Part shown: in pieces, positions 33,551 to 35,113 of the stretch
Position numbering within the stretch: position 1 is the stretch's first letter
Layout: each line of letters opens with the position of its first letter
Sequence record: OR339795
Length of the DNA stretch: 64,000 nt
From: Escherichia phage phi456
Reading direction: 5' to 3' (one strand)
Made by a program: the position numbers and the translations under genes
Notes under the pieces: generated by a model
Told to the model about the DNA's origin: nothing
Database searches by the model: none
Seen by the model: only the letters and a program-made list of their open reading frames with translations

Positions 33551-33567
33551 ATTGCTCTAATAATTCC
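33551..33567 (+). promoter_or_regulatory. C1 operator-like site
   Basis: attgctctaataattcc, 14/17 consensus match including the ATTGCTCTAATAA core. Confidence 0.6.
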
Positions 33568-33599
33568 ATGTTTTTAAAACGCGATGTACACTCATCACG

Positions 33600-33616
33600 T
33601 TTTTTATTAGAGCAAT
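33600..33616 (-). promoter_or_regulatory. C1 operator-like site, inverted partner
   Basis: Reverse complement attgctctaataaaaaa; with 33551-33567 it brackets a 32-bp promoter-like interval. Confidence 0.55.
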
Positions 33617-33630
33617 CCATAAGGTGCACT

Positions 33631-33849
33631 ATGTGGCCATTCCGACGGAAATATCACTACTGGCTGATCGCCTTTGTTACGCCGACCGGCGGTATCAGGC
33701 ATGTCATTACCAGGTATCGCAACAAGAGACTCACCTTAGCCAGAATTTTACAGGCTGCCATAGGTGAGGGACTGGATACAAATTGCGTAGTCCTTCCACC
33801 TTCATACTTAGGAAAAATGACCGAAGCACAAGCTAATACGGAACTTTGA
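33631..33849 (+). CDS. small hypothetical protein, first gene of a C1-controlled operon
   Basis: ATG at 33631 after AAGGTG; stop abuts the next start codon. Confidence 0.35.
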   Translation: MWPFRRKYHYWLIAFVTPTGGIRHVITRYRNKRLTLARILQAAIGEGLDTNCVVLPPSYLGKMTEAQANTEL

Positions 33850-33850
33850 A

Positions 33851-35113
33851 ATGAGCACTTCAGCACAAAACCAATCAATCGAAAATGTATCTATCCCTGA
33901 CGTCCTGAATGCCGGTATCCCGGCCATTATCCAGAACATCCGGGCCGCGCAACGCCGCGTTAGTTGTGATGACCTCACAGCGCGTTTTTTTGATAATGCG
34001 GTTCAGTCAGCGGAGATGCTTCACGCACAGCTTATTGATGTTTATAACGCAGAAGCTGATAGCCATAACTCCCTGGTAGATGCAGCTGAAAATATGCAGT
34101 TGGATCTTGGTCTGAAGGGTAAAGAAATTGAAGAGCTTCAGCTGCAAATTGAACATTTGAAACGCCAGCAACAGGACGCGATCGACGATGCGACGCATGA
34201 CGCCAACCAGCGTGCTGATAATGCCGAACGTATAAGCATTGAGCTGGAAACAAAACTCAATGAAATGACCGCGATGGTTGAACTGCGGAACTCACAGATT
34301 TCAACGCTAAAATCTCAATATAAAGAGATCATGAAACTTGATCCTTTTAACCTTGAGAAACGCTATAACAAAGCTAAAAGCGAGCGACAGGAACTGCGTA
34401 AGCAGGTCGCCGACCTTAACCAACAGTTCAAAAAAACTATTAAAGATGCAAGCGAAGCGCGCGTGGCATTTGCTAATAAAAAAGCAGAGGTTACCGCGCT
34501 GGTTAATGAGAATGCCAAATTTGCGACGCTCAAGAAGGAAATGTATGGCATTACTGAGCGCCGTTTCCCTGCAAGCAAACTTCATCCGACGTTAGGGCAA
34601 ATCTCCTTCTTCCCGCGCCTCCTGGCTTATGGGATCTCATCGCCTAAAGAGTTCAATAACGAGCGTCCTTATATCGTTTCTAAGCTGGACTTTGCTTATC
34701 AGTTCTGCTGCGACATGGGCTATGCCATTGATATCCGAATCAACGAATGGTTGATGCCAAACTTCCAGCCGTTGGCCATTTTCCGCGAGTTCCAGCCGGA
34801 AGGTTGGGTAGAGTTCTTCCATGAATTGATCTGTAAAGAGATGGAAAGCCGCCGCCCGGAATTGGTCCGTCGAGTTGAGTGGGCGCAAGAGGTTATGTTG
34901 GCAGATGCAGAGCTGCCGTTCGAACCGGAATTCATTGATGATCTGGCAACTAAAGGGTTGCATACCCTGTTTGATGTGGTTACCCGCCGTCATGAGCAGT
35001 TGGTTGTCGAATTGGGTTTAGAGGAAACAGCGGCAAGAAGACTTCTCGATGTTTGCTATGCACGTAGCGATGCATGGGAAAAAGAGAACGGCGGCACTAT
35101 TTACGTCCGCTGA
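33851..35113 (+). CDS. coiled-coil protein of unknown function
   Basis: 420 aa; residues about 60-230 predicted helical coiled-coil; C-terminal globular domain without recognised motif. Confidence 0.5.
   Translation: MSTSAQNQSIENVSIPDVLNAGIPAIIQNIRAAQRRVSCDDLTARFFDNAVQSAEMLHAQLIDVYNAEADSHNSLVDAAENMQLDLGLKGKEIEELQLQIEHLKRQQQDAIDDATHDANQRADNAERISIELETKLNEMTAMVELRNSQISTLKSQYKEIMKLDPFNLEKRYNKAKSERQELRKQVADLNQQFKKTIKDASEARVAFANKKAEVTALVNENAKFATLKKEMYGITERRFPASKLHPTLGQISFFPRLLAYGISSPKEFNNERPYIVSKLDFAYQFCCDMGYAIDIRINEWLMPNFQPLAIFREFQPEGWVEFFHELICKEMESRRPELVRRVEWAQEVMLADAELPFEPEFIDDLATKGLHTLFDVVTRRHEQLVVELGLEETAARRLLDVCYARSDAWEKENGGTIYVR

Follow-up and report, generated by a model that had tools for sequence, protein, structure and literature searches.

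The pmgR-pmgS locus of Escherichia phage phi456, a probable C1-controlled early operon, and the predicted architecture of PmgS

The pmgR-pmgS locus

The locus occupies positions 33,551 to 35,113 of a 64,000-nucleotide stretch of DNA from Escherichia phage phi456 (OR339795), which is referred to here as the window. It features two operators for the phage repressor C1, a promoter region with a nested palindrome, and two genes. The first gene, pmgR (shtA in P7), is located on the plus strand at 33631–33849 and encodes a 72-residue protein of 8.3 kDa with a pI of 10.1; it is preceded by an AAGGTG Shine-Dalgarno sequence at 33621–33626. The second gene, pmgS (shtB in P7), is located on the plus strand at 33851–35113 and encodes a protein of 420 residues and 48 kDa with a pI of 5.2. 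Both reading frames had been named in an initial annotation of this DNA, and both are present. The genes meet in a TGA-A-ATG junction, and the operon is closed by an intrinsic terminator on the plus strand (35133–35166), which begins 20 nt past the pmgS stop codon and consists of an 11-bp stem with six G-C pairs, a 7-nt loop and a TTTTT run.

The nucleotide sequence of the region is 98.0–99.0% identical to that of 18 P1-type phage records, including P1 and P7, and the encoded PmgR and PmgS proteins are 100% and 99.5% identical to those of P1. By sequence comparison, the locus is very probably pmgR-pmgS, an early operon under C1 control in a P1-like phage-plasmid; this applies to its identity as well as to its control by the repressor. 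The same locus is found in P1 as OpmgRa/OpmgRb-PpmgR-pmgR-pmgS (AF234172 / NC_005856, nt 82152–83714) and in P7 as Op(sht[a,b])-shtA-shtB (AF503408), where the two genes carry the names shtA and shtB. The positions of the operators, their spacing and the terminator are shared by the window, P1 and P7. The window differs from P1 and P7 by a T-to-C change at 33582, which lies in the palindrome, and by three further intergenic substitutions. The element around the locus is rearranged relative to P1 and P7: pap is followed by a type I hsd locus, and the element lacks lpa and pacAB.

The window also contains the c1 repressor gene on the minus strand at 45810–46658, which was located by tblastn with P1 C1.100 (99.3% identity over 283 aa). 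As judged from this match, c1 encodes the cognate repressor and is the trans-acting partner of the two operators.

The locus is already known, and the operators, the promoter and both genes have been part of the P1 annotation since 2004. As a genome feature, with an ordinary layout, it is thus nothing new; the value of the locus is corrective and hypothesis-generating. Given that P1 is a workhorse phage and that resistance genes are spread by P1-like plasmids, sorting out its last unknown essential genes is of modest practical interest.

C1 operators

OpmgRa (formerly Op86a), ATTGCTCTAATAATTCC, lies on the plus strand at 33551–33567 and overlaps the −35 region of the pmgR promoter, and OpmgRb (formerly Op86b), ATTGCTCTAATAAAAAA, lies on the minus strand at 33600–33616, 3' of the −10 region and over the likely transcription start. 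Both are assigned as C1 operators by sequence match and by GenBank annotation. Each matches the 17-bp asymmetric C1 consensus ATTGCTCTAATAAATTT at 14 of 17 positions. Both agree with the consensus throughout their first 13 bases, which form a perfect 13-nt inverted repeat. Nine C1 sites with three or fewer mismatches occur in the window, where shuffled sequences led to an expectation of 0.32, and nine were reached in 0 of 100 shuffles. The P1 (AF234172) and P7 (AF503408) records carry protein_bind features for the "phage repressor C1" at the homologous positions. The P1 record states that OpmgRa and OpmgRb "control expression of pmgR and pmgS" and places PpmgR in between, and the P7 record names the matching operators Op(sht[a]) and Op(sht[b]). 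The proposal that two inverted C1 operators flank a promoter agrees with this annotation.

The interval between the operators (33568–33599) is exactly 32 bp and contains the nested palindrome, as the initial annotation had noted. The operator pair is conserved in five diverged relatives (JK004, L017, L018, L019 and L004), down to 52% PmgS identity; in L003 and L007, whose PmgS is 27% identical, a different inverted repeat takes its place. The same 17-bp asymmetric operator lies over a sigma-70 promoter in other C1-controlled P1 operons, for example Olpa-Plpa and the bivalent Oc1ab. The pmgR operators differ in their arrangement: they are two monovalent sites separated by 32 bp, whose AT-rich tails point towards each other and which bracket the core promoter. 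Olpa, by contrast, has only one site, and the two sites of Oc1ab overlap within a stretch of 28 bp.

The pmgR promoter

PpmgR, as predicted in the P1 record and transferred from AF234172, corresponds to 33552–33580 on the plus strand, with a −35 element TTGCTC at 33552–33557 and a −10 element TAAAAC at 33575–33580, and it overlaps OpmgRa. A consensus scan did not pick up this promoter and found no strong sigma-70 site. Across seven relatives, the hexamer at the annotated −10 position matches TATAAT at only one to four of six positions, and in none of them is there a T at −7. An alternative −10 candidate, TACACT, is a conserved hexamer located on the plus strand at 33587–33592, in the loop of the nested palindrome. 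The loop hexamer is TACACT, TATCAT or TATTAT in all seven relatives, it matches TATAAT at four or five of six positions, and T-12, A-11 and T-7 are invariant. L004 and L019 feature a good promoter, TTGATT-16-TATTAT; in P1 itself, the −35 candidate that pairs with TACACT is poor (ATTCCA, 3 of 6 matches).

On the strength of its conservation, TACACT is preferred here over TAAAAC as the functional −10 element, which makes it somewhat more probable that the annotated −10 of PpmgR is wrong than that it is right. With TACACT as the −10 element, transcription would start near 33599 and OpmgRb would be located at about +1 to +17.

The nested palindrome

The nested palindrome is a plus-strand hairpin, AAAACGCGATG / CATCACGTTTT, followed by a T-run (33576–33605), with arms at 33576–33586 and 33593–33603. 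It is not concentric with the operator pair, since its center falls at 33589.5 and that of the operators at 33583.5. The arms are perfectly complementary in P1 and P7, and in the window they are complementary at 10 of 11 positions, the T-to-C change at 33582 having introduced a C·A mismatch. The RNA folding energy is −9.5 kcal/mol in the window versus −13.4 kcal/mol in P7. The T-run that follows the inner hairpin derives from the A-tail of OpmgRb.

The palindrome has the sequence features of an intrinsic (Rho-independent) terminator, namely a stable G+C-containing hairpin and a U-run located 3' of a gene. In P1, the pmgQ stop codon lies 1 nt before OpmgRa, and the hairpin begins about 27 nt after this stop codon. 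RNA folding in six relatives gave −9.5 to −19.1 kcal/mol with z-scores of −4.5 to −7.1. The T-run follows the hairpin in five of seven relatives: a hairpin with a UUUUUU tail is found in the window, P7, JK004, L017 and L018 (−9.5 to −16.5 kcal/mol), and a clean U-run is absent in L004 and L019, where it is degenerate. A strict terminator scan did not call the palindrome because of the mismatch in the stem. Within the 7-bp core stem, compensatory changes occur at three pairs, and 91.8% of cells are paired, compared with 10–73% when the partner is slid; these hairpin statistics come from seven sequences of about four to five lineages.

Palindromes around −10 elements are classic repressor sites. 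The palindrome encloses the best −10 candidate and sits between both operators; instead of being a terminator, it could be bound by a second regulator that is dimeric, or it could act as a cruciform promoter element. This is improbable, as the stem sequence varies by lineage (CGTGATG, CATGGTG, CGGCATG, TGTGGTG) with pairing preserved, as expected of a hairpin in RNA or DNA but not of a conserved site for a protein. Additionally, the L018 hairpin uses a shifted register, and the 3' T-run argues against a regulator site. The palindrome is, by a modest margin of confidence, predicted to be the intrinsic terminator of the upstream pmgN-ppp-pmgQ operon, which would insulate pmgR-pmgS.

Proposed regulation

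In the plasmid prophage state, monomeric C1 would occupy the two asymmetric 17-bp operators. With one site covering the −35 region and the other placed at the transcription start or immediately after it, the pair would shut a weak sigma-70 promoter. The hairpin and U-run would end pmgN-ppp-pmgQ transcription, so that pmgR-pmgS would answer to its own operators only. Upon inactivation of C1, the translationally coupled pmgR and pmgS would be transcribed up to the strong terminator at 35133–35166.

The suggestion of an early lytic role fits C1 control, and no Lpa-type late-promoter −22 box was found upstream of the operon. Other C1-controlled P1 genes (ssb, dmt, kilA, ban and ref) are lytic-cycle genes that are induced on C1 inactivation (PMC4713147), and pmgS transcripts have been reported 10 min after infection (bioRxiv 10.64898/2025.12.28.696737).

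PmgR

PmgR matches PHROG 3177 over its full length (E 4.3e-47), and sequence searches against Pfam, NCBIfam, PADLOC and the PDB revealed no relative of known function. PmgR homologues were found only on enterobacterial contigs of 90–130 kb. The gene lies directly upstream of pmgS-like genes in P1, JK004, L004, L003, L007, D6 and L009; the small ORFs located 5' of the PmgS-like genes in L011 and phiARM81mr are not PmgR-like.

[quoted passage not shown] The phenotype resembles that of a pacA knockout, and the authors note that mass spectrometry may have overlooked PmgR as a small component of the virion (PMC9024508). pmgR is thus not a mere leader ORF but is essential for infectious virions.

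Architecture and family of PmgS

PmgS consists of a conserved N-terminal segment, a helical coiled coil of about 185 residues, an alpha/beta domain (~238–350) and a C-terminal (HhH)2 domain (~352–412). The AlphaFold2 model features two continuous helices, 41–160 and 168–232, which are joined by a conserved KLDPxxL motif, and the P1 record notes a coiled coil at residues 75–220; the earlier estimate of about 170 residues of coiled coil is therefore reasonable. No structural match was found for the middle alpha/beta domain. Searches of PmgS against Pfam, NCBIfam and PADLOC returned coiled-coil noise only (SMC, LmuB, JetC and TPR).

The C-terminal domain had been described as unrecognized. This holds for Pfam searches with PmgS itself, which are blank in this region, but the last ~65 residues were recognized as an (HhH)2 domain through searches by structure and by family. 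In the model, the C-terminus features five helices with two helix-hairpin-helix motifs, a fold like that of the Rad51 N-terminal domain, the C-terminal domain of the RNA polymerase alpha subunit (alpha-CTD) and the NusA acidic repeats (NusA-AR). The PDB profile matches are weak (E 0.25–0.28). Pfam HHH_5 and RNA_pol_A_CTD were each detected in 9 of 29 distant PmgS homologues and not in the PmgS of the window.

The (HhH)2 domain of PmgS caps a coiled-coil protein, unlike those of Rad51/RadA/RAD51C, RNA polymerase alpha and NusA (AR1/AR2), and PmgS carries no core of a recombinase, RNA polymerase or NusA. P1-type PmgS has a degenerate second hairpin, with the canonical GIG replaced by LGLEE, and an acidic HhH domain with a net charge of −8. 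These two features make DNA binding by P1-type PmgS doubtful, and in character the domain resembles the NusA acidic repeats, which bind protein, more than the Rad51 N-terminal domain, which binds DNA.

PmgS matches PHROG 1660, "PmgS-like head morphogenesis", over residues 1–420 (E 1.7e-195), and the family comprises at least 123 clusters at E ≤ 1e-3. Gene context outside the P1-like elements was examined in four phages found by tblastn on annotated phages (phiARM81mr, Vibrio phages douglas 12A4 and 1F273_PE002, and Aeromonas ST4). In these four phages, the homologues adjoin exoVIII/RecT/integrase, DNA methyltransferase or endonuclease genes and not structural genes. The recognizable (HhH)2 domain and the wider family in an early-region context are new for PmgS. 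In L023 and L024, the pmgS ORF is split at about residue 200–210.

Functional assignment of PmgS and PmgR

The "head morphogenesis" label goes back to a positional guess, "putative morphogenetic function", in the P1 record. One of the outcomes that had been set against the initial annotation was that the protein is a known P1 early gene product with an assigned function; PmgR and PmgS are indeed named P1 products, but the assigned function is only this "putative morphogenetic" one. A pmgS deletion gives normal plaques and "normal restriction" on EcoA, EcoB and EcoK hosts (PMC9024508 Table S3), and PmgS is named nowhere (0 occurrences) in the main text of the paper on the P1 virion proteome, virion-protein table included (PMC9024508). 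The deletion phage is infectious and plates normally, and the gene has an early C1-controlled promoter with homologues in early regions, which sets it apart from a late structural module. The inherited label is doubtful because the homologues outside P1-like elements adjoin recombination and methyltransferase genes in early regions, and the PHROG 1660 label is contradicted by the deletion phenotype and by this gene context. The widely propagated label thus appears unfounded.

The reading that is favored here, with somewhat better than even confidence, is that PmgS is an early, dispensable, probably dimeric coiled-coil protein and not a virion or head protein, whose (HhH)2 domain would contact DNA or a partner associated with DNA or RNA polymerase. 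PmgR would be a small basic partner that is kept across the P1/D6 group and is needed at the stage of DNA packaging or head completion.

There are discrepancies between two published essentiality datasets regarding pmgR, and these bear on the alternative that comes closest, although it is still unlikely. PmgR may be an antidote or regulator of PmgS in a two-component module, and its essentiality would then reflect nothing but a block of DNA packaging or head completion by unrestrained PmgS. The in-frame deletion of pmgR, which leaves pmgS expressed, is lethal and the deletion of pmgS is silent, and a dCas12a roadblock on pmgR was scored as non-essential (EOP 0.94 and 0.30), such roadblocks being polar on downstream genes according to the authors. 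The pairing of a small basic PmgR with a large acidic PmgS, their translational coupling, and the persistence of the gene pair down to 20–27% PmgS identity also fit an antidote. However, the CRISPRi screen missed four other known essential genes as well, its authors blame roadblocks that are weak near the 5' end of a transcription unit, where pmgR is located, and the PmgS-like genes of non-P1 phages are without a PmgR-like partner. A more elaborate form, slightly less likely again, is an early module complete in itself: PmgS would act on replicating phage DNA, PmgR would restrain PmgS or hand it over, and PmgS without PmgR would block packaging. Such a module would explain why the in-frame pmgR deletion is lethal while the pmgS deletion and the polar CRISPRi block of the whole operon are tolerated. 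If this were true, PmgS-like proteins would represent an uncharacterized class of phage DNA-metabolism or nucleoid-handling factors mislabeled as head proteins, spanning the early regions of Vibrio, Aeromonas, Pseudomonas and enterobacterial temperate phages.

It is also unlikely that PmgR and PmgS are morphogenetic proteins that are merely transcribed early, be it as head or scaffold proteins, as in PHROG and RefSeq, or as sheath proteins, as the P7 names ShtA/ShtB imply. Both genes do lie within a block labeled "putative morphogenetic" by Lobocka et al. in the P1 record, long coiled coils are typical of scaffolding proteins, and the D6 homologue is annotated as a "putative prohead scaffolding protein". 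Normal plaques of the pmgS deletion, the absence of PmgS from the virion-proteome main text and the lack of a detectable late promoter speak against this, as do the distant homologues in early recombination and methylase regions, far from structural genes. Additionally, the (HhH)2 domain is not a known scaffold feature, and the pmgR deletion has normal tails, which is at odds with the sheath names.

The initial annotation had also raised a conflict function, which found no direct support. PADLOC searches with PmgS gave only coiled-coil matches to LmuB and JetC (E 6e-5 to 6e-3), no specific PADLOC or NCBIfam family was matched, and restriction of the pmgS deletion by the type I systems EcoA, EcoB and EcoK is normal. 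PmgS is also extremely conserved among P1-like plasmids (PMC9603915), unlike fast-evolving anti-defense cargo. It is therefore unlikely that PmgS serves in host takeover or counter-defense, for example by diverting host transcription factors as a mimic of the alpha-CTD or NusA-AR, or by protecting phage DNA during replication. In favor of such a role, pmgS is early, repressor-controlled and dispensable, as is typical of accessory conflict genes, and the C-terminal domain of PmgS is similar to the alpha-CTD and to the NusA acidic repeats and shares the acidity of the latter. A single hint comes from the neighborhood of the distant homologues, in a sample of four phages: recombination genes and orphan DNA methyltransferases are the neighbors, and two of the phages have the homologue directly 5' of an orphan DNA methyltransferase gene, while a third has it one gene away. 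The P1-like relative L017 carries a GmrSD-like gene and a Dam-type methylase close to the locus.

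Identity of the locus and operon structure

The 2.1 kb around the locus (33551-35113, +) shares 98.0-99.0% identity with 18 phage records, each from P1, P7 or a close P1-like phage-plasmid. At the homologous position the P1 record AF234172 features a [quoted passage not shown], followed by a predicted sigma-70 promoter PpmgR, OpmgRb (former Op86b), pmgR (72 aa), pmgS (420 aa), and then pap. The P7 names for the same features are Op(sht[a]), Op(sht[b]), shtA, and shtB. Since these records carry the same features and PmgR and PmgS are 100% and 99.5% identical to the P1 proteins, the locus is, by sequence comparison, one already annotated in P1. 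The initial annotation, which described paired inverted C1 operators, a 32-bp interval with a nested palindrome, and 72-codon and 420-aa ORFs that correspond to pmgR and pmgS, was accurate in these elements and is a rediscovery.

OpmgRa (33551-33567, +) and OpmgRb (33600-33616, −) each match the C1 consensus ATTGCTCTAATAAATTT at 14 of 17 positions and are perfect inverted repeats of each other over their first 13 bases. Nine C1-operator matches of this grade were found in the window, versus 0.32 expected by chance. The c1 repressor gene is located at 45810-46658 (−) and is 99.3% identical to P1 C1. Other operator-like sites in the window are at 2640-2656, 4301-4317, 6066-6082, 50538-50554, and 56836-56852, as well as at 46753-46769 (−), 48417-48433 (−), and 48500-48516 (+), the last three at most ~2 kb from the c1-coi immunity region.

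The Shine-Dalgarno sequence of pmgR is AAGGTG, and the gap of one base between pmgR and pmgS (TGA-A-ATG) suggests that the two genes are translationally coupled. The operon ends at a strong intrinsic terminator (35133-35161). No Lpa-type late-promoter box was found upstream of pmgR and C1-type operators are present, so the early timing proposed in the initial annotation is judged to be right. Sequence and annotation together indicate that pmgR-pmgS is a repressor-controlled, self-terminated two-gene early operon.

Inner palindrome and promoter

The intergenic region was aligned with five diverged relatives (JK004, L017, L018, L019, and L004), whose PmgS proteins are 52-71% identical to that of the window. 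Both operator cores are nearly invariant in this alignment. OpmgRa is altered (ATTACTC) in L004 and L019 and OpmgRb features no compensating change, which indicates that the outer arms are conserved as protein sites and not as a stem.

The inner palindrome (33576-33603), AAAACGCGATG / CATCACGTTTT, is complementary at 10 of 11 positions; it is perfect in P1 and P7, from which the window differs by a T-to-C change at 33582. Pairing is kept in the stem variants CGTGATG/CATCACG, CATGGTG/CACCATG, CGGCATG/CATGCCG, and TGTGGTG/CGCCACA, and three of the seven core pairs are changed on both sides. In total 91.8% of the stem cells are paired, versus 10-73% with the partner slid, and the covariation score was reached by 0 of 500 shuffles. 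Folded as RNA, the palindrome reaches −9.5 to −19.1 kcal/mol (z-scores −4.5 to −7.1). Six consecutive T residues, which come from the A-rich tail of OpmgRb, follow the hairpin in five of seven sequences, and the pmgQ stop codon in P1 is located one base before OpmgRa. The most economical reading, drawn from only four or five independent lineages, is that the hairpin serves as the intrinsic terminator of the upstream Oppp-controlled pmgN-ppp-pmgQ operon, in which case pmgR-pmgS would depend on its own promoter. The window pmgQ features a GAG-to-TAG nonsense change at 33499-33501 relative to P1 and MH422554, and its ORF loses the last 16 codons, ending at 33501 and not at 33549.

The loop of the inner palindrome features a hexamer, TACACT, TATCAT, or TATTAT in all seven sequences, that agrees with TATAAT at 4-5 of six positions and in which T-12, A-11, and T-7 are invariant. 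The annotated −10 element, TAAAAC, becomes TGAAGC or TGCGGC in relatives and the T at −7 is never present. Because the loop hexamer is conserved while TAAAAC is not, and because it completes a respectable promoter in L004 and L019 (TTGATT-16-TATTAT), the annotated −10 of PpmgR is probably wrong and the real −10 is probably 33587-33592. With the −10 at this position, OpmgRa would cover the −35 region and OpmgRb would span approximately +1 to +17. The matching −35 is poor in P1 itself, so the promoter would be weak.

In the distant relatives L003 and L007 (PmgS 27% identical), the P1 operator is replaced by different inverted repeats, AGATACTAATTTAT / ATAAATTAGTATCT and CCATACTAATT / AATTAGTATGG, that likewise flank a hexamer, TATTAC or TATCAT, with a pmgR-like gene downstream. 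As judged from these sequences, the architecture outlives the operator sequence: the design is kept and the immunity specificity is changed. C1 bound to the two flanking operators would block a weak sigma-70 promoter, and the inner hairpin would insulate pmgR-pmgS from upstream transcription.

Domain structure of PmgS

The C-terminal domain of the 420-aa protein had been called unrecognised. This holds for PmgS itself, for which a Pfam scan gave nothing above threshold, but the domain is now partly recognised through homologues. A family profile built from nine homologues matched 123 representative clusters at E ≤ 1e-3, of which 84 reach E ≤ 1e-10; most are 360-470 aa in length. Among 29 members scanned singly, nine match RNA_pol_A_CTD (best E 5e-7) and nine match HHH_5.

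AlphaFold2 models (full-length pLDDT 73.5; residues 225-420 pLDDT 79.5, pTM 0.72) feature a conserved N-terminal helix with the motif AAQRRVxCDDLTxRF, an acidic helix of 120 residues (41-160), a break with a strongly conserved K-E-x-x-x-L-D-P-x-x-L (158-168), a basic helix of 65 residues (168-232), a small alpha/beta domain (~238-350), and a five-helix C-terminal domain (pLDDT 86-96). The complementary charges of helices 41-160 and 168-232 suggest that they fold back on each other. The middle domain gave no structural match and has no conserved catalytic-looking residues. The canonical hairpin KGIGxKTA of distant members becomes ELGLEETA in P1-type PmgS, whose C-terminal domain is the most acidic in the family (net charge −8). 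The ancestral role of this domain was probably non-specific DNA binding, and the P1 version may instead serve for protein contacts, in the manner of the NusA acidic repeats.

In two P1-like lineages (L023, 3001-4262; L024, 3001-4264) pmgS is split at approximately residue 200-210 into two overlapping ORFs of 247 or 242 aa and 190 aa, with the N-terminal ORFs 87% and 62% identical to the window PmgS. Several clusters of ~231-250-aa N-terminal fragments are also found in databases (P0021, P0023-P0028). Repeated inactivation of a dispensable gene could account for these, as could recombination or assembly errors. Additionally, an E. coli protein of 480 aa (P0002) combines a 94% identical PmgS copy with a DNA cytosine methyltransferase match (PF00145); this fusion, or mis-call beside a methylase gene, echoes the PmgS-methyltransferase adjacency in Vibrio and Aeromonas phages.

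Phenotypes and gene context

The pmg genes were deleted in-frame by Gonzales et al. 2022 (PMC9024508). Deletion of pmgR, which could be complemented in trans, yielded no infectious virions; tails and incomplete heads were made, much as in a mutant of the packaging gene pacA (PMC9024508). Phage deleted for pmgS were infectious and showed "normal restriction" on EcoA, EcoB, and EcoK hosts (PMC9024508), which leaves the conflict role suggested in the initial annotation unsupported. PmgS is absent from the main text of that paper, virion proteome included. Both genes were non-essential by dCas12a CRISPRi in Piya et al. 2023, where pmgR is listed among five known essential genes missed by the screen and the polarity of dCas12a roadblocks on downstream genes is stressed (PMC10695390). 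The published data are discrepant: phage with a clean pmgR deletion are not viable, whereas deletion of pmgS has no phenotype and a polar block across the whole operon does no harm. It is possible that the roadblock on pmgR was ineffective, as the authors suspect weak roadblocks near the 5' ends of transcription units, where pmgR sits (PMC10695390). That pmgR is needed only if pmgS is expressed, with PmgR antidote-like, is rather improbable, though it would fit the conserved coupling of a basic 8-kDa PmgR with an acidic 48-kDa PmgS.

Both genes are among 21 extremely conserved genes in a survey of 77 P1-like plasmids (PMC9603915), and other C1-controlled P1 genes are lytic-cycle genes, e.g. 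ssb, dmt, kilA, ban, and ref (PMC4713147). In the P1/D6 group (the window, JK004, L004, L003, L007, D6, and L009) the pmgS-like gene is always immediately preceded by a small PmgR-like gene, even where PmgR identity is as low as ~22-35%. PmgR homologues were found only on 90-130 kb enterobacterial contigs. Outside this group PmgS-like genes without a PmgR-like partner are located in early regions of other temperate phages, of which four were examined: Aeromonas phiARM81mr (CI ... exoVIII, RecT, integrase, small ORF, PmgS-like, ORF, Dam), Vibrio phage douglas 12A4 (PmgS-like, DNA methyltransferase), Vibrio phage 1F273_PE002 (YfdP-like, YfdQ-like, PmgS-like, type II methyltransferase), and Aeromonas ST4 (restriction endonuclease-like gene, PmgS-like). 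In none of the four is the gene among structural genes. The label "PmgS-like head morphogenesis", carried by PHROG 1660 and RefSeq, originates from a positional "putative morphogenetic function" in a 2004 annotation, and is undermined by the non-structural context, the deletion phenotype, the lack of a proteome signal, and the early promoter.

PmgS would be an early-acting coiled-coil dimer that offers (HhH)2 (double helix-hairpin-helix) domains to DNA or to a partner associated with DNA or transcription, and would be dispensable under laboratory conditions. PmgR would be needed no later than the stage of DNA packaging or head completion. Of the two genes, pmgR is essential in P1, and the product of pmgS belongs to a phage protein family that is widespread.

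In four more distant P1/D6-like elements (L003, L004, L009, and L016), the region a few kb upstream of pmgR/pmgS holds a ulx-like gene and a gene for a giant DarB-like methyltransferase-helicase (~2250-2300 aa), whereas darB is elsewhere in the genome of P1 proper, so the order of early and anti-restriction blocks differs between subgroups.

Rearrangements of the element

Of pmgM, the window retains just the C-terminal half (residues 100-192, at 30546-30824), and pmgL gave no match, which suggests a further rearrangement breakpoint upstream of the pmgN-pmgQ operon. Between doc/pdcA/pdcB and c1 (44181-45810), pdcB is truncated to residues 1-155 of 347, a 167-aa ORF lies at the junction (44659-45162, −), and lpa, pacA, and pacB are absent. 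Because the late activator and packase are missing, the P1-like element should be unable to make virions and is probably a defective prophage-plasmid.

Immediately downstream of pap and of OpmgT (the Op88 operator, 35692-35708), a type I restriction-modification locus (35957-43191, −) takes the place of the P1 pmgT-to-humD region and encodes a 1038-aa HsdR, HsdS, and HsdM on the opposite strand; its ORFs are 35957-39073, 39195-40265, 40365-41345, and 41629-43191. The stretch 35650-45650, within which an IS1 transposase is annotated, matches 78 enterobacterial plasmid records (PLSDB) at 99% identity or more. In the P1 record itself, these flanks are noted as homologous to the EcoDXXI and R124 hsd loci.
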